Source: Dictyostelium discoideum
Lineage: Eukaryota
Length of the DNA: 64,000 nt
Direction of reading: 5' to 3'
Assembly (NCBI GenBank): GCA_000004695.1
Contig: CM000154.2
Location: 1,600,001-1,664,000, forward strand
Shown: in pieces, positions 2-42,256 of the stretch
Position numbering within the stretch: the stretch's first letter is position 1
Layout of the letters: each line of letters opens with the position of its first letter
The notes under the pieces: model-generated
Database searches by the model: none
The model's input: the letters and a program-made list of their open reading frames with translations, nothing else
Told to the model about the DNA's origin: nothing
Made by a program: the position numbers and the translations under genes

Positions 2-265
2 ATCTCACCAAATCAAAAGAGAACAATTATCCGTCAAACTAAAACTACAACAACAAGAATTTTTAAAAAACCAATCTCCTCAATGGAACCAATTACAAAA
101 ACTGAAATAACCTCAAAAACTATTACTAGACCTGTAACTGAAATTCCTTCTAATGATCCAAAATCAAAACCAAAATTATCAACTCAAACAAGTTATTCTG
201 TCGACCTTTCACACTTAAATAATAACTCTTGGGTTTGGGATAATGGTGAAACTAGAAAATTATAA
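2..265 (+). CDS. 3' terminal exon or C-terminal fragment of a gene that begins upstream of the window; product unknown
   Basis: Frame 2 is open from base 2 through the stop at 263-265 (...[33 protein letters not shown]...GETRKL*). The track ORF 83..265 is only the ATG-delimited part. No recognisable domain. Confidence 0.3.
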
Positions 266-275
266 AACTAAATAG

Positions 276-337
<62 letters not shown>

Positions 338-466
338 TATATTGTTTGTTATTTTCTCAAATTCATTTAATCATTTTAATTAGTAAATAAATAAAAAATT
401 TATATTGTAAATAAAAAAAAAAAAAAAAAAGATTTATATTTTAAAAATTAATTGTTTTTTATTTAT

Positions 467-8116: not shown

Positions 8117-11100
8117 TAATATTGGAACTGGAATTAATTTAAATATTAAAAATAATAATAATATAAATAATAATAATAATAAAAGTGGTTTCCCAGTTAA
8201 AAAATCAAGATTTAATGGAGAGGATGATGACGATGATTATTTCTTTTCAAATGTTCCACCTAAATCATCAATGACCACATTAAATAAATCTCCACCAAAC
8301 TTTGAAAATGCTAGTAGCAACAACAATAACAACAATAATAATAATAATCAAGAATCTGATAGTAAAAATCAAAATGAAGATGAAGACGATGAAATCGATC
8401 CATTAGATGCATTCATGGAAAATGTCAATGCACAAGCGGCAATTGATAACAGTAAATCCATTGAAAAAGGGCAACAGCAACAGCAATCACTAAAAGTATT
8501 GTATTTTCTTCACCACCATCTCGCTGGGATACAAAACTTTCATTTTGTCCACTACTAATTTTCACCCCTTTTTCTATAATTAATCTCTTTTTTTTTTTTT
8601 AAAAAAAAAAAATATTTATAAATAATTATAATAATAATTTTTATAATAAATAATAATAATAATTATAATTTTTATTATTATTATTATTATTTTTTTTTGT
8701 AATCATATTGATACAAAAAAATAAATAAAATAAAATAAAATAAAATAAAATAAAATAAAATAAAATAAAATAAAATAAATTTATAAAGTCTAAAAGAGAT
8801 GATATTGATAATGAAGATGATGAAGAAATATTCTATAAATTAAGACAAAAGCAATTGGCTAACAAATCATCAAAACAACAACAAGATGATGATGTAGATT
8901 ATTCAAGTTTAGACGAGTAAGTGACACCACAATTATATATAGATAAAAATATATTTAATTATTTTATTAATTCATTTTTTTTTTTTTTTTTTAATAATTT
9001 TTTTTTTTAGTGATGATGGATATTTTGATGATGAAGAATCATTAAAGAATGGTCAAAGTAAAGGTAAAAGAATTATTGAACCATTACCACCAATTGACCA
9101 TTCAAAAGAGGAATACATTGAGTTTAATAAAATCTTTTATGAAGAACATCCAGATATTGCCAATTTAACAGAAGAACAAGTATTTGAAATTAGAAAGAAT
9201 TTAGATATTAGAATGACAGGTACTGATTTAATTAATCCTGTCACTTCATTTGGTCATTATGGTTTCGATGATATTTTATTACAAGCTATAGCAAAACAAT
9301 CAATTGAAACACCAACACCAATTCAAAAACAAGCCATCCCCATCGCATTGTCAGGTCGTGATTTAATTGCAATTGCTAAAACCGGTTCTGGTAAAACCGC
9401 TACTTTCATTTGGCCTTCCATTTCACACATTATGGATCAACCCTATCTTGAAAAAGGTGATGGTCCAATCGCTTTATTCTTGGCACCAACTAGAGAATTG
9501 GCTCATCAAATTTATTTAGAAACTTTAAAATATTCAAAATATTTTAAATTAAAGTAAGTAATTTTAAAAAAAAAAAAAAAATGAAAAAAAAATTATTTAA
9601 TAAATTAAATATTTTTGATATTAATATTTTCCTTTTTTTTTATTTTTTTATAATAATATTAAATAGAACAACAGTATTATATGGTGGTGTATCAAAACAA
9701 CAACAATGTAAAGAATTAAAAGCAGGATGTGAAATTATTGTAGCAACACCTGGTAGATTAATAGATATGATAAAATTAAAAGCAACCAAATTAAATCGTG
9801 TTAGTTATTTAGTATTGGATGAAGCTGATAAAATGTTTGATTTCGGATTTGGACCACAAGTGTTATCAATTGTTAATCATGTTAGACCAGATAGACAAAC
9901 ATTATTATTTTCTGCTACTTTCAAACCAAATGTTGAAGAATTTGCACGTACTATTCTATCAGATCCAATAAAGATTTCAATTGGTATGATTGGTAGTGCC
10001 AATTCTGATATCACCCAAATCGTTCAAGTTTTAAAATCAGATTCTGACAAATGGAATTGGCTAACCAATCAACTAGCACTACTATTGAGCCAAGGTAGTG
10101 TATTAATCTTTGTTAGTACCAAAGTTGCCGTGGAACAATTGTCAAGCAATTTAACAAAATTTGGCTTTCAAACATGTACATTACATGGTGACAAGAATCA
10201 AATTGAAAGATCACAAACTATTCAAACTTTTAAAGAGGGAAAGATTAACATTTTAATTGCCACTGATGTTGCAGCTAGAGGTTTAGATATTCCATTGATT
10301 AAGAATGTAGTAAATTATGATACATCAAGAGACATTGAATCACATACTCATCGTATTGGTAGAACTGGAAGAGCAGGTAATACTGGTGTTGCTTATACTT
10401 TAATAACTCCAAAGGATATTCATTTCTCTGTTGATTTAATTAAAAATTTAGAATCTGCAAGTCAATTTGTGCCACCTGAATTAATAGATGTTGCAATGAA
10501 TAATCCTCATTTCAAAAGAGAAAGAGGAGGCGGTGGTGGTGGTTCAAATAGAGGTAGAGGCAGAGGTGGTGGCGGTGTGGGTTATCGTAGAAATAGTAGA
10601 GGCGGTGGTGTAGCTTTTAATAGTAATAGAGATAGCAGTAGAAGTGATTCTCAAAATAAATTTATTCCTGCACAATCTGTCGAGGGTGGAAGGTTATTTA
10701 ATCCAAATAATACAGATAATAGTGAAATCAATAATGAAAATGAAAAAAGTATCAATAATGAAAATAAATTCAGTAATAATAATAGTGGCTCAAGCAATGA
10801 TAGAAACAGCATTAACTACAGAAATAATAGTTTCAATAATAATAGTAATAATACTAATAATAGTGGAAACAGTAACTTCAACAATAGCAATAGCAACAAT
10901 GGCTACAGCAATAATAACTATAATAATAATTATAAAAATAATAGTAATTATAACAATAGTAATAATAATAATAATAGCTATTATAATAATAACAATAGTA
11001 ATAATAACAATAATAGTAATTATAATAATAGTAGTAATAATAACAATAATAATAATAATAATTATAGGAATGGCAATAATAATAATAATTATAACAACAA

Positions 11101-22436: not shown

Positions 22437-22563
22437 GAACCAGTAAAAAAAAAAAAAAAAGAACGATGAGTCAATTGTTTTGTTTTTTGTTTAGAAAAAA
22501 TATTTTTTAATTATTTTTAATTTTAATTTTATTTTACTACCTTATATGTGTATTAAAATAATA

Positions 22564-23654
22564 ATGAATCCATTTACAGATTATCAAGTACAATTTTTTG
22601 AAAGAATAAAATTGAAACCAAGAATAATTGAATCATTAGATGATATTTCAGAAGTTTTAGTAGCTTGTTCAAAAGTATTTACATTTGAAAATTTAGATAT
22701 CATAAGTAATACTCAAGAAGCATTAACAAGAAAAGTTTTAATAAAACAAGTTTTAATTAATAAACAAGGTGGATTATGTTATAAAGCAAATACTTTATTA
22801 TATTATTTCCTTTTAGATTTCGGTTTAAATGTTCACCAAACTAGAGCAACTTGTGAAAATCAAGGTATTTTTCTTTTTTTTTTTTTATTTCATTTTATTT
22901 TATTTTATTTTATTTTATTTTATTTTATTTTATTTTTAGTTTTAGTTTTGTTAATAAATATTTTTTTTTTTTTAAAGAGAGTCATAGTCGTTGGAATATT
23001 GGCCATGGTCATATGATTAATATATTGAATTTTGAAAATAAATTATATGTAATGGATGTTGCATTTGGATGTAATTTATCATTAAGGCCAGTACCAATTA
23101 CAGATGATGGTAGTGAAGTTATTGAATCTTGTATTGGATTATATAGAGTTATTAAAAGAGAAAATATAGTTGCTGGAGTATATCATTATACACATATTTT
23201 AGAACATAGAAAACCAGATACTTATTTAATTGAATCTGCAAAGAATTGGGTAATTGGTTATGCATTTGATCCTTTATTAATTTGTAAAAATGATGGTGAT
23301 GATGATGATGATGATAATAATAATAATAATAATACTCATCAAACTCAAATTCAACAATTAGTAATAGATGATCCAAATAAAGATTTTTGTGTAAAGCCAT
23401 TAGCAACTAAATTAATAAATAATACAGATAATAATAATAATAATAATTCAATAGCGACATTAACCTTAAATTCATTCACACTTACAAATTGTAAAACTGG
23501 CGAAAAAATTAAAACAAATTTTGATAATGATAATTTATTTGAACAATTTAATCAACATTTAATTTCAATTTTTAATTTACCACCTTTAAAAATTATACCT
23601 CAAATATTTTTAAATCAAACATCAAATTTTCCTATAAATAATTTAAATAGTTAA
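22564..23654 (+). CDS. Arylamine N-acetyltransferase (NAT) family paralogue 1. join(22564..22864,22978..23654)
   Basis: NAT N-terminal FENLDI, catalytic Cys in QGGLCYKAN, His in GHGHMINIL, Asp in YVMDVAFG. Intron right after ..CENQG, same position in all three paralogues, containing an (ATTTT)n repeat. Start chosen at the second ATG (MNPFTDYQVQFF) by homology to the paralogues. Confidence 0.8.
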
Positions 23655-23804
23655 ATAATAAGATTTAAAAAAAAAAAAAAAAATTTTTAAAAAAAATAAA
23701 TTAATTAATAATTTTTATTTCTTTCGATATATCTTATTTAATAAAAACAAAAAACTGCGAAAAAAATAAAAAAAATAAAAAGAATTAATTGTTCTAAAAA
23801 TGAA

Positions 23805-23906
23805 AANNNNNNNNNNNNNNNNNNNNNNNNNNNNNNNNNNNNNNNNNNNNNNNNNNNNNNNNNNNNNNNNNNNNNNNNNNNNNNNNNNNNNNNNNNNNNN
23901 NNNNNN
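23805..23906. other. Assembly gap (102 N)
   Basis: Run of n between NAT paralogues 1 and 2. Confidence 1.
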
Positions 23907-24316
23907 TAACTTTTTTTATTACTTTTTGGGTCACTATCTTTTTTTGGTCAAAAAGCAAGATTTTTTTTATGTTACAATCTTTTTTTGGTAATAACTTTTT
24001 TTATGTAAAATAAAAAATAAAAAAAAAAAATACCCCAAAAAAGGGTCGGAATAGAAGGAGTTTAAAAACATTGCTGACATCATTGATTGACGGTTAAAAA
24101 ATAAAATTAAAAAAAAAAAAAAAAATTTAATGTAAAATTAACAAAAATATGATTCCGAACTTTTTTGGGTAATTCCGAGCTTTGGTATAAGATTTTTTCG
24201 AATTCTTATTATTATTTTTTTTTTATTTAACTTTTTTTTTTTTTTTTTTTTTTTCATATTTTATTTTAGTCTAATAAAAGTTTAAAAACAAATATATATA
24301 TATAAACAAATAAAAA

Positions 24317-25307
24317 ATGGAACCAAATCCAATATTTAGCGAATTTCAATTAGAATTTTTTAAAAGAATTAAAATGCAACCAAAATCAATAGAAACATTA
24401 AATGATGTTTCAGAAGTGATGAGTGGTTGTGCACAAATTTTTTCATTTGAAAATTTAGATGTAGTTGCAAATACAACTGAACCTTTAAATAGAGAAGTGA
24501 TAATTCAACAACTTGTAAATAATAAACAAGGTGGATTATGTTATAAAATTAATTCTGTATTTTATTATTTTATTAAAAGTTTTGGTTTTAATATTTATCA
24601 AGTTAGATGTTGTGTTGAAAATCAAGGTATGTTTTTTTGGTTAAAAAAAAAAAGTTGAAAAAAAAAAAAAAAATTTTATTAACAAATTTTTAAAAAAATA
24701 AAAAATAAAAAATAAAGAAACACATGATTGTTGGCAAATTAATGGTGCACATATTATAAATATAATTGAATATGAAAATAAAAAATATTTAGCAGACGTT
24801 GCATTTGGATGTAATTTATCATATGAACCAATTCCATTTTCAGAAGAGATTATTGAATCATGTACAGGTTTATATCGTATTCGTAAAGTTGATAATATTA
24901 TTAGGGATATTAAATATACATATCTTTTAGAATTTAAAAAACCAGATTCATTTTCACCAGAATCTGCTCGTTTATGGACCAATGGTTATGCATTTGATCC
25001 ATTGGTAAAAGCAATTGATATTGATGAAAATGATAAAATTGATAGTCATGCAACTCAAATTCAACAATTAATTATTGATGATCCAACAAAAGAATTTAGT
25101 GTTAAACCTTTAGCTACAAAAGTTGTAAACAATGAATCAATAGCAACTTTAACCTCAAATTCATTCACTTTAACAAATTGTAAAACTGGTGAAAAAACAA
25201 AAGTTACCTTTGATATCAATAATGAAATCAAACAATTAGAACAATTTAATCAACATTTAATTTCAATTTTTAATTTACCACCTTTAAAATTTTTACCAAA
25301 AATTTAA
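24317..25307 (+). CDS. Arylamine N-acetyltransferase family paralogue 2, more diverged. join(24317..24626,24718..25307)
   Basis: MEPNPIFSEFQLEFF..FENLDV..QGGLCYKIN..CVENQG|ETHDCWQINGAHIINIIEYENKKYLADVAFG... C-terminus SIATLTSNSFTLTNCKTGEKTK..FNQHLISIFNLPPLK shared with the paralogues. Same intron position. Confidence 0.75.
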
Positions 25308-25651
25308 AAATAATATGAAAATAAAAAAATAAAAAAAAAATAAAAAAAAAATAAAAAAAATAAAAAAAAAAAAACAATTGATTCGTGTCTGAAAGTGTGG
25401 ATTTAAAAAAGAATCTAAATTTTAATTCAGGAATCTTCTTTTTTTAGAAAATGTTTGTGCAATAATTTATTTTTTTTTTTATTTTTTTAATTTTTTTTTT
25501 TTTATTTTTAATTTTAAAAGAAAAAAAAAAAAAAAAAAACAAAAAAAAATAAAAAAAATAAAAAAACCATATTTTTTTTCAACCTTTTACAACAGATATA
25601 TCTAAAAAAAAAAAAAAAATAAAAAAAAATAAAAAAAATAAAAAAAAAAAA

Positions 25652-25989
25652 ATGGAAGCAATTTCAATATTTTCAGATTATCAATTACAATTTTTTAAAA
25701 GAATTGGAATGAAACCAAAACCAATTGAAACATTAGATGATGTTTCAGATGTAATGAAAGCATGCTCAAATGTATTTTCTTTTGAGAATTTAGATATTGT
25801 ATCTAATTCATGTGAACCTTTAAATAAGGATGTATTAATAAAACAAGTAATATGTAATAATCAAGGTGGACTATGTTATAAAATCAACACTTTATTATAT
25901 CATTTTCTTTTAGAATTTGGTTTCAAAATTCATATAATTAGAGGTAGTGTTGAAAATCAAGGTATGTGAATAAAAATTAATTTTTAAAA

Positions 25990-26030
<41 letters not shown>

Positions 26031-26671
26031 TAATAATTGTTTACATTAATAATTTTATAGAAACTCATTCAGATTGGAATATTCCAACTGGTCATATGAT
26101 TAATATAATTAATTTTGAAAATAGGTTATATGTTGTTGATGTTGCATTTGGATGTAATCTTTCATTGAGACCAATTCCAATTACAGATGATGGTAGTGAA
26201 GTAGTTGAATCCTGCACAGGTTTATATCGTGTTCGTAAAGTTGAAAATTGTGTTTCTGGAAAATATAATTATACACATATTCTAGAACATAGGAAATTGG
26301 ATAGTTTTTTAATTGAATCTGGAAAGACCTGGGTGACAGGTTATGCATTTGATCCATTATTAATTGTTGATAATAATAATAATAATGAAAAAACAACCCA
26401 CCAAACACTTGTACAACAATTAGTAATTGATGATCCAACTAAAGAATTTAGTACTAAACCTTTGGCTACTAAAATTGTAAATGATGGTTCATCATTCTCT
26501 ATTGCAACTTTAACTGCAAATTCATTCACACTTACAGATTGTAAAACTGGTCAAAAAACTAAAACCAATTTTGATAATGATAAATCATCATTTGAACAAT
26601 TTAATCAACATTTAATTTCAATTTTTAATTTACCACCTTTAAAAACAATTCCGCCAATATTTTTAAATTAA
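25652..26671 (+). CDS. Arylamine N-acetyltransferase family paralogue 3. join(25652..25961,26061..26671)
   Basis: MEAISIFSDYQLQFF..FENLDI..QGGLCYKIN..VENQG|ETHSDWNIPTGHMINIINFENRLYVVDVAFG..; C-terminus nearly identical to paralogue 1. Cys-His-Asp triad intact. Confidence 0.8.
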
Positions 26672-27369
26672 TCAGAAAAAATAATAAAAAATAAAAATAA
26701 AAATAATACTTTTATTTTTTTTATTTTTTTTTTTAAAAAAATTTTAATTTTTTATTTATTTTTTTTTTTTTTTTTTATGTCGACTAAACGATACATATAA
26801 AAAAGACAACCGGAAATCTTTGGGCGATAATTTATTGGTGATTGTCTTTGGGCGAAATTTAATTGAAAAATGTTTTTTGTTTTTTTTTTTTTTTTTTATA
26901 TTTTTTTTTTTTTTTTTTTTTAAAATAAAATTTTTATTACTGTTATTTTTTTTTTTTATTTTATTTTATTTTTTTTATAAAATATATACTAATCTAAATT
27001 TAGTACTTTATAGGATCTTTTATAACAATTTCTTTTTTTTATACAAATAAACGAAACATATAAAGGTAGCTCAAAAAAATTAAAAACAAATAATTGGAAA
27101 TTAATAATAAAAAAAAAAAAAAACCCACACACAAGCCTTTGGTATCATCCTTTAACACAAAAATCTAATCAAAAAAAAAATAAAAAAAAATAAAAAAATA
27201 AAAAATAAAAGAAAAGAAAAAAAATGAAAAATAAAAAACACAAAGGTTTAATTCAAACCAATAACGAACACACAACACAAAATTAACACTACCACCATTA
27301 TTCTCATAACACACAACGATCATGGGTTAATTATTTTTATTATTATTGTTGGTTTACAAAATAATTAAA

Positions 27370-31606: not shown

Positions 31607-32334
31607 ATGAGATTTTTAAAATCATTGTTATTATTATTTGTTTTAATTGGAAGTGGTAATGCTTCAAGATCAATTAATTTTGATAGATTCAATTTAGAAT
31701 TTAATAGTTGTGGTGGTGAAAATCAAAAACAACAACAATTACAAAATTTAAAAATTAATAAATGTTCAAAAATTGATATTAAAGATTGTTTAAATGGTTC
31801 ATTTATGTTAACAAAAATGGATGATGGATTTGTTGGTACTCATTACTCTGATTCAAAATGTCAAAATCCAAGTAACAAATTATTTTTCACATGTGATGGT
31901 AAAGAAGGTCAATTAATGAATAATAGTTTTTTTAAAGTTGCGTGTTTTCAATCAAATCAATTAAAATTTAATTATAATCAAACCCAAGAAAAATATCATA
32001 GTAAATATATTGAATTGTTAGAGAAAAATAAAAATACAAATAATAAAAATGGAAATAATTTTAAATTTACAATTATGGATGATAATATAATTTCTGATTT
32101 AAAACAAGAGAAATTTAATAACCAATCAAATTCCAAATATAAAATTACTGATAATAATTATTTGGATGATCAACAAGAACATGAAAATACTGAATTAAAA
32201 TCAAAACAAACTTCAAGAAATAATAATAATTATAAAAATAATAATAATAATAATAATAATAACAATAATAATAAAAATAAAAATAATAATAATAATATAA
32301 ATACTAATATTAGAAATGGTAAAAATAATAATAA

Positions 32335-32382
<48 letters not shown>

Positions 32383-32851
32383 TCAAAATAATCAAAATAA
32401 TATTAGAAATGGTAAAAATAAAAATAATAGTAATAATAGTATTAGAAATAAACCAAGAAATAATCCAGATGATATTTATTTACCACCTCAACATTCATCA
32501 CAAGGTCCAAGTTATCAAGAAGAAAGTTATTCATTTCAAGATGTATCAGGAACTGAATCTGAATACATTCAACAAATTAATGATACAATTCAAGAACTAA
32601 ATACAACATTTAATGAAAATTCATCATATTTCACCGAAACTCCAATTTTTACTGAAACTCCAAGTGATACAATCCCACCAAATCCAACTGTTTCTCATGT
32701 AAATCCAACACCAACAGTAACTACAAATCCTCCAAGTGAATCATCAAGTCAAGAATTAACTGAAACACCCGCTCAAGGAAATTCTTCATCATTTTTATTT
32801 ACAAATATTTCATTGATTTTAACATTATTTATTATGTCTTTTTTATTTTAA
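31607..32851 (+). CDS. Secreted, probably GPI-anchored protein with an N-terminal Cys-motif domain and a long Asn/Lys-rich linker
   Basis: Signal peptide MRFLKSLLLLFVLIGSGNA. Cys motif ..KCSKIDIKDC..KCQNPSNKLFFTCDGKEG..FFKVACFQ. Ser/Thr/Pro-rich stalk. C-terminal hydrophobic tail SSSFLFTNISLILTLFIMSFLF typical of a GPI signal. True ATG at 31607 (the track start 31571 is a TTG). Confidence 0.6.
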
Positions 32852-32984
32852 ATAAAAGTAACTTTGTTGTAATTTAAAAAAAAAAATAATAATAATAATA
32901 ATAAATATATAAAAATAAATAGTAACCCCATTTATTATAAATTATTTTACAAATAATAACCCCACGTTAATTATTTATATTTTA

Positions 32985-33026
<42 letters not shown>

Positions 33027-33090
33027 GTCCTGTGGTATTAATAATAATTTTTTATTATTTATTATTATTATTTCAAAATTTCATAAAATA

Positions 33091-33876
33091 ATGAAATTAA
33101 AAAGAATATTATTTTTAATATTATTTTTGTTTATTTATTTTTGTATAGTTTTATCTTCAAAATCTTTAGAAAATGTTAAAAGTGATCAATTTGAAATTGG
33201 GAGAGAATTTAATGTATTATTACCAATTTTCGATGAAAGTTTCATAATGGTAGAATTAGAGTGTTTTCAAGTTGATGAAAAATCATCATTTAAAATTGAA
33301 AAGATTGGTGATGAAATGTATGTTGGAATTAACTATTTTGATGGTAATTGTTCAAATATTGAAGGTGAATTTCAATTTAAATGTACAAATAATTTTATGG
33401 ATATAATTTCATGTGAATTCTTTAAAGTTGCATGTTCAAATAAAATCGTTATACCATTTGAAAAAGAAAAAAAAAAAGAAACCATTTTAATGGAATTGTA
33501 TGGATATAAAGGTGATTTTGAAAATAGTCAAGAATTATTACAAGTATTAAATGATTTTTCCAAATTACCAAGAACATTTTCATCACCACATAAAGTTGCA
33601 TATGCTGATGATTTTGATTCAAACGATCAACTACAAGCAATTCAAATCAATACAAAACAAACTGAAAATGAAATTATTCCAGTTATTGAAAAAGAAAAAG
33701 ATGATGATTTGAAAACAGCTGATAAAAACAATACAAAAATTTCAAATGAAAATAATAATAATAATAATAATATTAACAATGAAAAAAATAATAGCAATAA
33801 TTATTTAAATTTAAATAATTATTTAATATCTTCAATAATTATATTAATAAATTGTTTAATTTTTTGTTTAAATTAA
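33091..33876 (+). CDS. Paralogue of the upstream secreted Cys-motif protein (signal peptide and C-terminal hydrophobic tail)
   Basis: Signal peptide MKLKRILFLILFLFIYFCIVLSS. The same spaced Cys motif LECFQ..YFDGNCSNIEGEFQFKCTNNF..SCEFFKVACSNK (FFKVAC shared with 31607..32851). Poly-N. C-terminal hydrophobic YLISSIIILINCLIFCLN. Confidence 0.6.
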   Translation: MKLKRILFLILFLFIYFCIVLSSKSLENVKSDQFEIGREFNVLLPIFDESFIMVELECFQVDEKSSFKIEKIGDEMYVGINYFDGNCSNIEGEFQFKCTNNFMDIISCEFFKVACSNKIVIPFEKEKKKETILMELYGYKGDFENSQELLQVLNDFSKLPRTFSSPHKVAYADDFDSNDQLQAIQINTKQTENEIIPVIEKEKDDDLKTADKNNTKISNENNNNNNNINNEKNNSNNYLNLNNYLISSIIILINCLIFCLN

Positions 33877-38659: not shown

Positions 38660-38799
38660 AATATATGTATGTTTTATTTAATTATTTACTTGTATTATTA
38701 CTTTTTTTTTTTTTTTATATATTTTTTTTTTTTATATTTTTTTTTTATATTTTTTTTTTCTTTATTATTATTATTATTATTGATAAATTATTTAATTAT

Positions 38800-41700
38800 T
38801 TATTTCTTAGATAAATCGATTTCACCTGAAGATTTTGAGGATTTACAACAACAGCAGAGATATTTCTTAACTTTTTTAATGAAAGAAGATCTCATTTGGA
38901 GCCATGCTACGACGTAAGCGGCAATACAAGCTACAAGGGCTAAAGCTTGAATAAGACATGCAATTAATTCACCAGCGGCGCTTGGTGATTTGATGTGAGT
39001 GAGTGAGAGAGAAACTGTAACAATATTGATGGCAGTTAAGAGATATTCGAGCCATAATTGATAATGATCGAAATATGGTTTACGGATGAATAATAATACA
39101 GCATAACCAATGAGAGCGATATCAATGACAACTACTTGAACGATTGGAACGGCTAAATCAGTACCAGTTAATGGATAGTTGGTCATTGGTTTGAATGATA
39201 AGATACCAATGATAACGGCCATAATGAATCTCTTGATAAACATGAAAACAACGAAACGATGATCAGTCTTTGGTTTGTAGTGAACGTAGAGACAGCCAAA
39301 TCTTTGTTTAAAGGTTGGATTGTGGAGACGAGCTTCTGGAACTGCAAGAAGGAACCAAATGGCAATTGGTAAACCAATACCATAGAGAACAAAGATAATG
39401 GCACCTGGAATGATGATTCTATAGTCATGTAATGGTGTAACCATAGCAAATGAGGCAGCAATTAAGACACCAATGTAACCAAATGTTAAAATACGTACAA
39501 GTACATGAATGAGACGATTAGTGACCACTTCTTTCCAATGAATTAAACTTTCCATGAATGAAATGATGGCATAGGCTAAAAGTAATGGAACTAAGAAAAC
39601 ACCCAATAAAAGACCAAACCAGAAGAGAATATTTGGAAGGAGGTAAAGATCACCTGAACCTAAACTATTTTCATATTGTGCCATAGATAAAATTGTACGG
39701 GCAGTGTTTGATGTCCAATCAGTTGGAACACTCCAAATTTGTGGTGGATTGATTGATGGTGGAAGTGGAATACCTAAATTTGACCAATCGAGATACTCGG
39801 TGAAACTGATGAAACGTGATGGGAAAACAACACCAATATGACTAACGAGTGAAATTAATTGGAATTGATCCATAAATGTCCATGCTTTGTGGGAACGTTG
39901 ATCTCTCCACCATAAGACTGAAGCTTCTTCATGGGTTGCTTTTGGGAATTGACCAGATTTATTTTCTTCTGCATAATCTTTAGCACGTTTAATATCGATT
40001 GGAACAGTGGTACCAATATCAATAATGTAGAGAATACCAACGAATGCAATGAAAATGCATGCCAATGCAATTACACCAGTTTCAACATTGGTATCAAAGA
40101 ACCAAGTACGACAGAAACCTTCGAATGGACCATATCTATCACCTTCCTTGCAAAGTCCATCAACTTCACACCAACCACAAGTAGTTCTTGAAAGACATGA
40201 TTCACTATCGGTATAATAGGTACATGGTGGTGGTGGGACTAATTCATTACAAGTTTCACCCATATGAGCACTATCACAAACACAAGTATAATTTGCAGTA
40301 TTACATGTACCATAACCATTACAACTATCTTTACATCTACGAATTTCACATTGAGCGCCTTCCCATTCTGATGAACAATAACAGAAACCATTTTCACATT
40401 TACCATTATCAGTACCAGTACAATTATTTAATGTCAAACAAAGTTCTTTATTGAAAAAAAAAAAAAATAATAAAAAAAAATCATTAGTTCTCCTCACGAG
40501 TAATTAATGATTTTATATAATAAATAAATAATAATAAAATATTTACCTTCTTCACAACCTTGACCTTGGTAATTGTGGTCACAAACACATGTACCATAAT
40601 TACATTCACCATGACCAGAACAATCTGATGGACAAATTGATTTAAATGTACCATAGAAAACACTATCTGGATAGAAAACTGAAATTGTTTTGGTTATTGA
40701 ATCAACTGAAATTGCAACTGATTGGGTGTTGGCTATATTTTCAGAAAGTGAACCTGTATTACCACCACTTGTATCAGTACCAATAAGTTGAGAACCTGAT
40801 GATGTTGTAGTAGAGAAGAAGAGTTGACCTCCTTTTACATCAATTCCTGCTGAAGGACATAATGAACCAAGAATTGTAAATGAATGTAATAATGTGATAT
40901 CAGTTGCTGAATAGTGGAAAATATCGACTTGAGTAATATATGAATTCATTCCACCTGCTTGACCACAAATATATAAAAGTTGTCTCTCTTCATCAACTAC
41001 ACCTGAACTTCTTAAGTTTGCAATTGATGAATTTGAATATATGGCAATTTTAGCTTTTAGAGTCATATTAAATACTAAAATATCACCATCAGAATCACCA
41101 ATAAAAGCTAATCCAAGTTTTGAATCTACAGTACTATAAAATTTGGTAAATAAAATTCAAGTTAGTTTAAAATAAAAAGTGAAATAAAAAGTGAATAAAA
41201 TAAAAACTTACATTGAAGATGGATCATTAATTGCAGCATCAAGTAAAATTTCATCATAACTGCTTGTACCAAATGTACCAGTAGCAGTATCATTAATGTG
41301 AATCAATACAGCCTCACCAGTAGCACTCTTTGAGGATAAAAAGAAAACGTCATCACCATATGATACACCACCATTAAGAGTAGTTACAAGTGAACTGTAT
41401 TTTTCATCATTGAGAAAGTCTGTGGATTCCATTGAAGTAATATCACCTTTTTTAACTCTGTTGAGGGAACCAATTGACATTGTGTAAACACGGTTTGCAG
41501 TAACGGCTGATGAAATTGGAGAAACTGGAACTGAAGTATATTGATTCCATGTTGCTTGGCTGCCTGTGTTTCCATCTTTTGAAAATTCTTCCATTAAACT
41601 TATATTTAATTGAAAGTAATTTACATCTCCACCAAAACTATAAAAAGAATTTGCTAGAATTGAACCAATTGGGAAATCTGCTGAAGTTGGAAAACCTGGT

Positions 41701-41837
41701 TGATCTGATGTGAAGGAAATTGGTTTTTCTGGATTGATTGAAAAACGTTCTATGTCATCATCTGAATAAGCAAAATTAAAAATTGCTAATAATATTCCAA
41801 TTAATAGAATCATTGATCCTATTTTTTGTGATTTCAT
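38800..41837 (-). CDS. Type I-like signal-peptide protein with EGF-like and PSI cysteine-rich modules followed by ~9-10 transmembrane helices. complement(join(38800..40445,40547..41133,41211..41837))
   Basis: Signal peptide MKSQKIGSMILLIGILLAIFNFAYS. EGF-like CSGHGECNYGTCVCDHNYQGQGCEE, CENGFCYCSSEWEGAQCE, CNGYGTCNTANYTCVCDSAHMGETC. PSI-like CLSRTTCGWCEVDGLC. Then many hydrophobic helices to the C-terminus ending KYLCCCCKSS. Introns GTAAGT..ATAG and GTAAAT..AAAG in consistent phases. Confidence 0.75.
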
Positions 41838-42256
41838 TTTTTTTTTTTTTTTTTTTTTTTACTATATTTGTTTATTATTAAAATTGGGAAAAAAAAAAAA
41901 AAAAAAGATTTTTTTTATATATTCGTATTACAGAAATGAAATGTTTTTATTTTTTTTTTTTTTACAACGGGGTATAAAAAAAATTTTTACAAAACTTCGA
42001 AAAAAAAAAAAAAAGTAAAAACTATTCTGTTTTTTTGTTTTGTTTTATTTTATTTTTTTTTTATTTTTTTTTCTTTTTTTTTATAAGCTAATAATACAAA
42101 CTAATCTAAAAAAAAGAAAAGAAAAGAAAAAAAAAAAAAAGAAAAGAAAAAAGGTCTCTAAAAAAAAAAATAAAAAAAAACAATATTTATATAAAATTTA
42201 AATTTAAAATAAAAAAAAAATCTAAGCCCCAACCTTTTTTTAAAAAAAAAAAAAAG

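Follow-up and report, generated by a model that had tools for sequence, protein, structure and literature searches.

A lineage-restricted tandem gene pair encoding probable surface glycoproteins with a shared cysteine module in Dictyostelium discoideum

The stretch of DNA analysed here, hereafter the window, comprises 64,000 nucleotides of Dictyostelium discoideum chromosome 5 (assembly GCA_000004695.1, contig CM000154.2, positions 1,600,001 to 1,664,000), and it carries two adjacent genes on the same strand, called A and B below, whose features and coordinates are collected in Table 1. Both open reading frames are confirmed where the initial annotation had placed them, with 239 bp between A and B. 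The product of gene B is identical (100%) to the AX4 protein DDB_G0288515, and gene A corresponds to a gene call of 414 amino acids in a newer D. discoideum assembly (GCA_054883475.1). A probable sadA, the substrate-adhesion gene (DDB_G0288511), lies four genes downstream of B, about 5 kb from the A/B pair. Given this position, gene identifiers would not be strictly positional here, and DDB_G0288513, a gene up-regulated at 20-22 h that might have been equated with gene A on the strength of its adjacent identifier, was therefore dropped as a candidate.

Table 1. Genes A and B and the features of their products (positions within the window; residues numbered within each protein)
Feature	Position	Strand	Extent	Remarks
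Gene A	31607..32851	+	single-exon CDS, 414 aa plus stop	hypothetical secreted, anchored glycoprotein
A signal-peptide-like segment	31607..31666	+	residues 1-20	MRFLKSLLLLFVLIGSGNAS; hydropathy
A shared cysteine module core	31757..31966	+	residues 51-120	C53, C61, C85, C96, C113 and FFKVAC motif
A poly-Asn/Lys low-complexity spacer	32216..32455	+	residues 204-283	variable length between species
A Thr/Pro/Ser-rich mucin-like stalk	32627..32779	+	residues 341-391	adjoins the putative membrane anchor; FTETPIFTETPSDTIPPNPTVSHVNPTPTVTTNPPSESSSQELTETPAQ
A GPI-signal-like tail	32780..32848	+	residues 392-414	(G)NSSS cluster, then hydrophobic tail to the end
Gene B	33091..33876	+	single-exon CDS, 261 aa plus stop	DDB_G0288515; UniProt Q54IU4 'Transmembrane protein'
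B signal-peptide-like or signal-anchor-like segment	33091..33159	+	residues 1-23	hydropathy
B shared cysteine module core	33256..33456	+	residues 56-122	C58, C87, C98, C108, C115 and FFKVAC motif
B-specific conserved non-repetitive segment	33460..33615	+	residues 124-175	EKEKKKETILMELYGYKGDFENSQELLQVLNDFSKLPRTFSSPHKVAYAD
B C-terminal hydrophobic tail	33805..33873	+	residues 239-261	after NNSNN; hydropathy

Orthologues of gene A in four other Dictyostelium genomes are 83-93% identical to it, those of gene B are 77-94% identical, and the A-B tandem is syntenic in five genomes of the D. discoideum group, where it is flanked by an Ank/PH gene and a 2OG-Fe(II) oxygenase gene. Over the whole gene dN/dS amounts to 0.19-0.26 for A and 0.13-0.37 for B, and over the regions that contain the module described below (residues 21-125 of A and 24-123 of B) to 0.11-0.36 and 0.11-0.29, respectively. 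A and B are real genes under purifying selection across the five genomes. A polymorphic pair of the kin-recognition type, such as tgrB1/tgrC1, is unlikely in view of the low dN/dS values and of the near-identical B modules in other D. discoideum strains.

In both proteins, hydropathy analysis finds hydrophobic 15-mers (Kyte-Doolittle mean >1.6) at the very N-terminal and C-terminal ends and nowhere else, leaving no cytoplasmic tail; this bears out the proposed layout, in which a signal peptide and a hydrophobic tail mark secreted, membrane-anchored proteins. The segments are MRFLKSLLLLFVLIGSGNA (followed by S) and GNSSSFLFTNISLILTLFIMSFLF at the N- and C-terminus of A, and MKLKRILFLILFLFIYFCIVLS (followed by S) and NNSNNYLNLNNYLISSIIILINCLIFCLN at those of B. 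Small residues occupy positions -3 and -1 after the hydrophobic N-terminus of A, of B and of all their orthologues, and by the -3/-1 rule cleavage of A is likely to fall after GNA. Residues 1-20 of A are invariant in five species with the exception of position 3, and the N-terminal segment of B is found in 5/5 species, provided that the D. citrinum gene call, which is truncated, is given an upstream extension; with about 17 residues, the hydrophobic stretch of the B segment is long and may instead serve as a signal anchor. At the opposite end, the A tail GNSSSFLFTNISL is invariant in five species, and the B tail may act as a GPI signal or else anchor the protein in the membrane by its C-terminus. 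Among the B orthologues, that of D. dimigraforme stands out by a longer, divergent tail. All orthologues of A and of B keep 14-19 hydrophobic residues at the very end of the protein, and the combination of such a stretch with a cluster of small residues is present and conserved in both proteins; as far as tail anatomy alone goes, this is consistent with GPI anchoring.

Between module and tail the two proteins have been said to carry divergent low-complexity stalks. The divergence holds, but B is not of low complexity throughout, as its residues 124-175 form a conserved segment that is near-invariant in five species (dN/dS 0.04-0.18), has no similarity to A, and is helical in a low-confidence model only. 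In A the region of the poly-Asn/Lys spacer reaches a dN/dS of 0.92, and the Thr/Pro/Ser-rich stalk, which is probably O-glycosylated, is conserved in five species.

The feature that joins the two proteins is a cysteine module. A single BLASTP comparison of A with B gives E = 0.032, and an hhalign comparison of profiles built from the five-species orthologues gives a probability of 84% and E = 7e-6 over 66 columns with 33% identity (A51-120 / B56-122). The Smith-Waterman score of the module is 93 versus 27.7 +/- 5.2 in composition-preserving shuffles (z = 12.5, 0/2000), the A and B modules are each other's best non-self match in a six-frame tblastn search of the 64-kb window (E = 2e-5 to 5e-5), and this cross-match was found again at 5/5 orthologous loci (E = 3e-5 to 1e-3). 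On the evidence of these alignments, A and B are true paralogues by virtue of the shared module, with a similarity beyond chance. The module had been put at about 100 residues; its existence and its FFKVAC end stand, but significant similarity extends over only about 67 residues (A51-120 / B56-122). The 30 residues upstream of it show no significant similarity between A and B, and neither do the sequences downstream (shuffle z = -1.7), on which score homology outside the module is rejected, although MAFFT aligns a few residues there.

Four pairs of cysteines align within the module (A53/B58, A85/B87, A96/B98 and A113/B115). The identical spacing with which they had been credited applies to the last three of the four (spacings 11 and 17) but not to the first interval, which measures 32 in A vs 29 in B. 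Further cysteines are C35 and C61 in A and C108 in B, and this one extra residue makes the count of ectodomain cysteines in B odd. All six mature-protein cysteines of A (C35 upstream of the core and the five of the core) and all five ectodomain cysteines of B are invariant in five species.

The view that the module corresponds to no described domain is supported as far as Pfam, NCBIfam and PDB sequences are concerned, none of which contains a match. Searches with the full proteins and with module-only sequences of all orthologues returned nothing near the cut-off from Pfam (E up to 10) or NCBIfam (E up to 1), a profile search of PDB sequences gave 0 matches at E <=10, an exhaustive profile HMMER scan of 1.84 billion representatives yielded no credible relative beyond B itself, and the module profile found no relatives among metagenome and viral contigs. 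A protein search with B recovered only orthologues, from D. discoideum, two D. cf. discoideum, D. dimigraforme and D. citrinum. The corresponding search with full-length A and with A1-203 recovered nothing, A itself being absent from a collection without poly-Asn proteins of this kind, so that negative results for A-like proteins are weak and the search for paralogues is not exhaustive. The suggestion that the module defines a family is not established, only A, B and their D. discoideum-group orthologues having come to light in these searches. The AlphaFold2 models are too poor to use (pLDDT 43 for the A module and 38 for B24-178), which renders the fold search uninformative; Foldseek against the PDB with the B24-178 model returned meaningless HIV-RT matches only.

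The expression profile during development had been named as a check. For B, DDB_G0288515 appears in the UP_Hr12_gradual and UP_Hr14_gradual lists for filter development (Rosengarten et al. 2015, PMC4403905, Additional file 7), that is, B is up-regulated at 12 h and 14 h. The gene is not mentioned in the main texts of the literature searched or in the other supplement sets searched, and B is absent from the life-cycle proteome supplements searched.

We lean, with moderate confidence, towards the explanation that A and B arose by an old tandem duplication, are restricted to D. discoideum and its closest relatives, and encode cell-surface glycoproteins; that the products are a lineage-restricted pair of GPI- or tail-anchored surface glycoproteins is probable. 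A cleavable N-terminal signal peptide would take both proteins into the ER, and the hydrophobic C-terminal tail that follows GNSSS in A and NNSNN in B would be exchanged for a GPI anchor or, alternatively, would keep the proteins in the membrane essentially without a cytoplasmic part, in either case placing them at the cell surface. The module of about 67 residues would then occupy the membrane-distal end, and it is probably beta-rich, with the four conserved cysteines paired in two disulfides, a picture drawn only from weak model secondary structure and from cysteine conservation. In A the module would be spaced from the membrane by the poly-Asn spacer and the Thr/Pro-rich, presumably glycosylated stalk, and in B it would be carried by the conserved segment that A lacks, with an acidic/Asn-rich linker after it. 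Its role would most likely be that of an extracellular binding unit in cell-cell, cell-matrix or cell-substrate contact, and in the case of B at least it would serve in the multicellular stage. Against this picture count the possible signal anchor of B, its UniProt name 'Transmembrane protein', the uneven cysteine count of its ectodomain and its absence from the life-cycle proteome supplements searched. A more ambitious version, in which the module represents a novel disulfide-bonded fold of extracellular type, either originating in the D. discoideum lineage or altered there past recognition, and A and B act in post-aggregative cell-cell or cell-matrix contact, is put forward tentatively and is rather doubtful.

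Among the rival explanations, the one that fares best, though it is unlikely, places A and B, as divergent members, in the ponticulin or ponticulin-like family, so that the module would be a ponticulin domain and not new. Ponticulins are Dictyostelium proteins of small size that have a signal peptide and a GPI anchor, are predicted to be rich in beta-strands, and link the plasma membrane to actin. A and B have a layout in common with them, consisting of a signal peptide, a Cys-containing region predicted to be beta-rich, a Ser-rich or Ser/Asn-rich omega-like region, and a hydrophobic, GPI-signal-like tail (Hitt et al. 1994, PMC2290967). An alignment of A with an unverified PonA sequence, which can serve as a lead only, is colinear and brings four cysteines and a CLN-SF motif into register with a pairwise hhalign E = 0.02, but the same alignment has a probability of 2.4%, and BLASTP gives E of at least 10. 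At 414 and 261 amino acids, moreover, A and B are 2-3 times larger than the ponticulins (about 15-17 kDa when mature; PMC2290967, PMC4920372) and, unlike these, have long stalks of low-complexity or mucin-like sequence. Neither A nor B is named ponticulin-like in UniProt or NCBI.

A soluble fate is somewhat less likely again. A and B would in that event be secreted or extracellular-matrix components of the slime sheath, stalk or spore coat, and their tail would serve neither as a GPI signal nor for stable anchoring. The Dictyostelium matrix commonly contains secreted proteins rich in cysteine, the rise of B at 12-14 h falls at the onset of sheath and prespore matrix genes, and the B tail is interrupted by Asn and Ser and divergent in D. 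dimigraforme. A terminal hydrophobic stretch of 14-19 residues in all A and B orthologues would nevertheless be unexpected in soluble proteins, and there is no Pfam similarity to known spore-coat or sheath domain families.

It is improbable that the module represents, in Dictyostelium, a cysteine repeat widespread among eukaryotes, a notion raised by the sole foreign match of the exhaustive profile search, a Plasmopara halstedii protein (PHALS_00500-type, KAL8010953.1) with 23 repeats in 4054 amino acids. The whole-sequence HMMER value is E = 1.1e-7 against 1.84 billion representatives, a motif is held in common (C-x7-8-S[FY]-x3-[KR]-x-D ... Y-x-D-x-x-C), and the oomycete protein likewise begins with a signal peptide and includes a Pro/Thr stalk and a hydrophobic tail at its C-terminus. 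The score is, however, the sum of 18 weak matches, each of <=7.7 bits, and as these fall on internally duplicated repeats they are not independent evidence; they span about 40-50 of the 101 profile positions, in no case extending to the FFKVAC end. Unlike the A/B module, the Plasmopara repeat is 166 amino acids long, has a different number of cysteines and lacks an FFKVAC-type C-terminal strand. With hhalign probabilities of 0.1-1.7% for the module profile against the aligned repeats, and on the per-repeat scores, the protein is rejected as a homologue. Lastly, the supposition that the A-B similarity stems from chance or composition, or that one of the reading frames is not a functional gene, is effectively refuted: the pairwise BLASTP value is just 0.032 in an extremely AT-rich genome with a biased amino-acid composition, but the shuffle z of 12.5, the profile-profile E of 7e-6 and the cross-match reproduced in five genomes contradict chance, and intact, syntenic reading frames under purifying selection in five genomes, together with the transcriptional regulation of B, contradict a non-functional gene.

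Under the favoured explanation, that of anchored surface glycoproteins, A and B look like ordinary lineage-specific members of this class; since uncharacterised lineage-specific proteins of the secreted and GPI types are very numerous in D. discoideum, the pair would not surprise a specialist, nor does it touch a long-standing open question. Should the module be a new extracellular binding domain, it would add one more lineage-specific surface-protein family to the multicellular stage of Dictyostelium and would offer a small, tractable case of the origin of orphan surface proteins via tandem duplication and stalk swapping. The practical value lies in the corrected description of the module of the A/B pair.

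In relation to known systems, the ponticulin family is, like A and B, specific to Dictyostelium and arranged in tandem gene clusters (PonC1-5, PMC4920372). Ponticulin binds and nucleates F-actin at the membrane. PsA and contact site A/gp80, which are developmentally regulated, GPI-anchored glycoproteins of Dictyostelium, consist of an N-terminal globular domain borne on a Pro/Thr-rich, O-glycosylated stalk and followed by a GPI signal. They have no sequence relationship to A and B, whose globular module is an orphan, but the layout of gene A fits them closely and B is likewise under developmental regulation. The elements of this mucin-stalk architecture, namely the signal peptide, the globular domain, the Ser/Thr/Pro stalk, and a putative omega site with its hydrophobic tail, can all be read in A, and every one of them save the Ser/Thr/Pro (Pro/Thr) stalk can be read in B.

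The tandem genes A and B, noted in the initial annotation as neighbouring paralogues and encoding, as found here, proteins of 414 and 261 aa, were confirmed as ORFs on one strand at the positions listed in the table, in a window characterized by extreme AT richness and by poly-Asn tracts in coding sequence. The product of B is 100% identical to the D. discoideum AX4 hypothetical protein DDB_G0288515 (UniProt Q54IU4, 'Transmembrane protein'), which places the window on D. discoideum chromosome 5, and the D. discoideum assembly GCA_054883475.1 annotates a gene whose product is exactly equal to A. The region between the two genes (32852-33090) measures 239 bp here and 233 bp in GCA_054883475.1, where both coding sequences are identical; one might guess that homopolymer-tract length accounts for the difference. 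Loci of D. dimigraforme, two D. cf. discoideum isolates, and D. citrinum were fetched via B orthologues, and every one contains the A-B pair at the same position among the same neighbours: three arylamine N-acetyltransferase genes and an ankyrin/PH gene upstream, and genes for a 2OG-Fe(II) oxygenase, an EcKL kinase, an aldehyde dehydrogenase, and an EGF-repeat protein downstream. The last of these is probably sadA, the gene for a substrate-adhesion molecule, and its 952 codons and EGF repeats agree with SadA. The identifier of sadA is DDB_G0288511 (supplement of PMC9686302).

Features of the A and B proteins (residues) and of their genomic neighbourhood (window positions)
Feature	Position	Strand	Remarks
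Three tandem arylamine N-acetyltransferase (PF00797) paralogues	~22500-26700	+	upstream of pair; array kept in 5/5 Dictyostelium loci
Gene A	31607-32851	+	414 aa
Gene B	33091-33876	+	261 aa
952-aa gene with EGF/teneurin-type repeats	~38770-41840	-	~5 kb downstream of B
A, predicted signal peptide	1-19/20		GNA then S
A, N-terminal region holding module	~100 residues		six cysteines
A, polar segment	126-203		conserved
A, poly-Asn/Lys spacer	204-283		length variable
A, Ser/Glu/Gln-rich segment	between spacer and stalk		conserved
A, mucin-like stalk	about 341-391		Thr/Pro/Ser-rich
A, C-terminus			GNSSS, then 19 hydrophobic residues
B, N-terminus			hydrophobic, longer than in A; cleavage likely after VLS
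B, module			five cysteines; one invariant N-glycosylation sequon, N86-C-S
B, B-specific segment	124-175		conserved; after module
B, linker	after B-specific segment		acidic/Asn-rich
B, C-terminus			NNSNN, then spacer, then 17-residue hydrophobic end

Despite a weak pairwise BLASTP match (E = 0.032), the similarity between A and B is real, as three independent tests agree. Alignment of five-species orthologue profiles with hhalign joined A51-120 to B56-122 over 66 columns (E = 7e-6, probability 84%, 33% identity); none of 2000 composition-preserving shuffles reached the observed module score (z = 12.5); and in six-frame searches of the 64-kb window the two modules were each other's best non-self match, a cross-match regained in all five orthologous loci. 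The homologous segment, which ends in FFKVAC, spans ~67 residues and not the ~100 originally suggested, the flanks on either side being without significant similarity. Four cysteine pairs align (A53/B58, A85/B87, A96/B98, and A113/B115), A has two further cysteines (C35, C61) and B one (C108), and the identical spacing that had been claimed holds for the last three pairs (11 and 17 residues) but not for the earlier interval.

All module cysteines are invariant, and purifying selection on the pair is evident from Nei-Gojobori dN/dS values of 0.11-0.36 for A21-125 and 0.11-0.29 for B24-123, the regions containing the module, and of 0.04-0.18 for B residues 124-175; the ratio climbs toward 0.9 only within the poly-Asn tract of A. 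The D. citrinum B-orthologue call (221 aa) begins too late and so lacks a signal peptide, which is restored, at about 9850-10000 of the fetched locus, by an in-frame upstream extension encoding MFLNKLLLIILYLFFYFCNFLTFS. In the filter-development lists of Rosengarten et al. 2015 (PMC4403905, Additional file 7, sheet filter_UP), B appears among the genes whose expression rises at 12 h and at 14 h; it is therefore transcribed and developmentally regulated. The same file includes DDB_G0288513 among the genes rising at 20 h and 22 h, and DDB_G0288517 once, in a later sheet; neither can be mapped to A, as dictyBase identifiers are apparently non-positional around this locus.

The initial impression that the module resembles no known domain was borne out by Pfam (E up to 10) and NCBIfam (E up to 1), both empty for the full proteins and for the module alone in every orthologue. 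When the complete set of PDB sequences was searched with a profile, nothing matched at an E of 10 or less, and metagenome and viral contigs yielded no relatives. An exhaustive HMMER search of 1.84 billion cluster representatives recovered B itself and a single foreign protein, from Plasmopara halstedii (KAL8010953.1; E = 1.1e-7). This protein was rejected as a homologue, as its score adds up 18 matches to internally duplicated repeats, none above 7.7 bits, the matches span less than half of the module profile, and profile-profile comparison with 23 aligned repeats gave a probability of 1.7% or less. KAL8010953.1 (4054 aa) carries 23 cysteine-containing repeats of ~166 aa (YLADGKCHK...SYRATRK.DGSA.VQ.Y.D..C), together with a signal peptide, a Pro/Thr stalk, and a C-terminal tail that is hydrophobic. 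It has no credible Pfam match and represents an uncharacterised repeat family in its own right. Two AlphaFold2 runs on shallow alignments reached pLDDT values of 43 and 38, so that no fold is assignable, and what Foldseek returned for such a model is noise.

The module is, so far as these searches reach, confined to the D. discoideum species group. Neither the exact sequence of A nor its 83-93%-identical orthologues were found in a collection of 15 billion proteins, though A is annotated in GCA_054883475.1, and the non-repetitive N-terminal 203 aa of A had no matches there. It is likely that poly-Asn proteins are missing from the collection or swamp its word index, and the AX4 reference annotation may have a different gene model for A. 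The homology searches appear blind to poly-Asn Dictyostelium proteins; further paralogues with such tracts may have been missed, and the family has at least two members.

Hydropathy agrees with the signal peptides and GPI-like tails noted earlier, as the 15-mers with a mean above 1.6 are confined in A and B to the very ends of the chain, N-terminal and C-terminal. The reading somewhat favoured here is that both proteins would enter the ER by N-terminal targeting and be anchored to the cell surface through either a GPI or the C-terminal tail, each displaying on a spacer a small, putatively disulfide-stabilised module whose role would most plausibly be extracellular binding in the multicellular stage.

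The main rival, that A and B are divergent members of the ponticulin family, seems unlikely. The analogy drawn in the initial annotation is a reasonable one: ponticulin is described as carrying a glycosyl anchor and predicted beta-strands, and its signal peptide as being cleaved (Hitt et al. 1994, PMC2290967), and ponticulin-like genes also form tandem clusters (PMC4920372). An unverified PonA sequence was colinear with the module and had four cysteines in register, at an hhalign E of 0.02 and a probability of 2.4%, without statistical support; kinship is a lead, not a result. As lineage-specific surface proteins the pair would be of modest significance, since Dictyostelium has numerous such proteins and nothing in A or B is mechanistically unexpected. 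The module is an orphan without an assignable family, in an architecture of an already known kind: A follows the pattern typical of Dictyostelium surface glycoproteins with a GPI anchor and O-glycosylation, modifications that A would presumably share.
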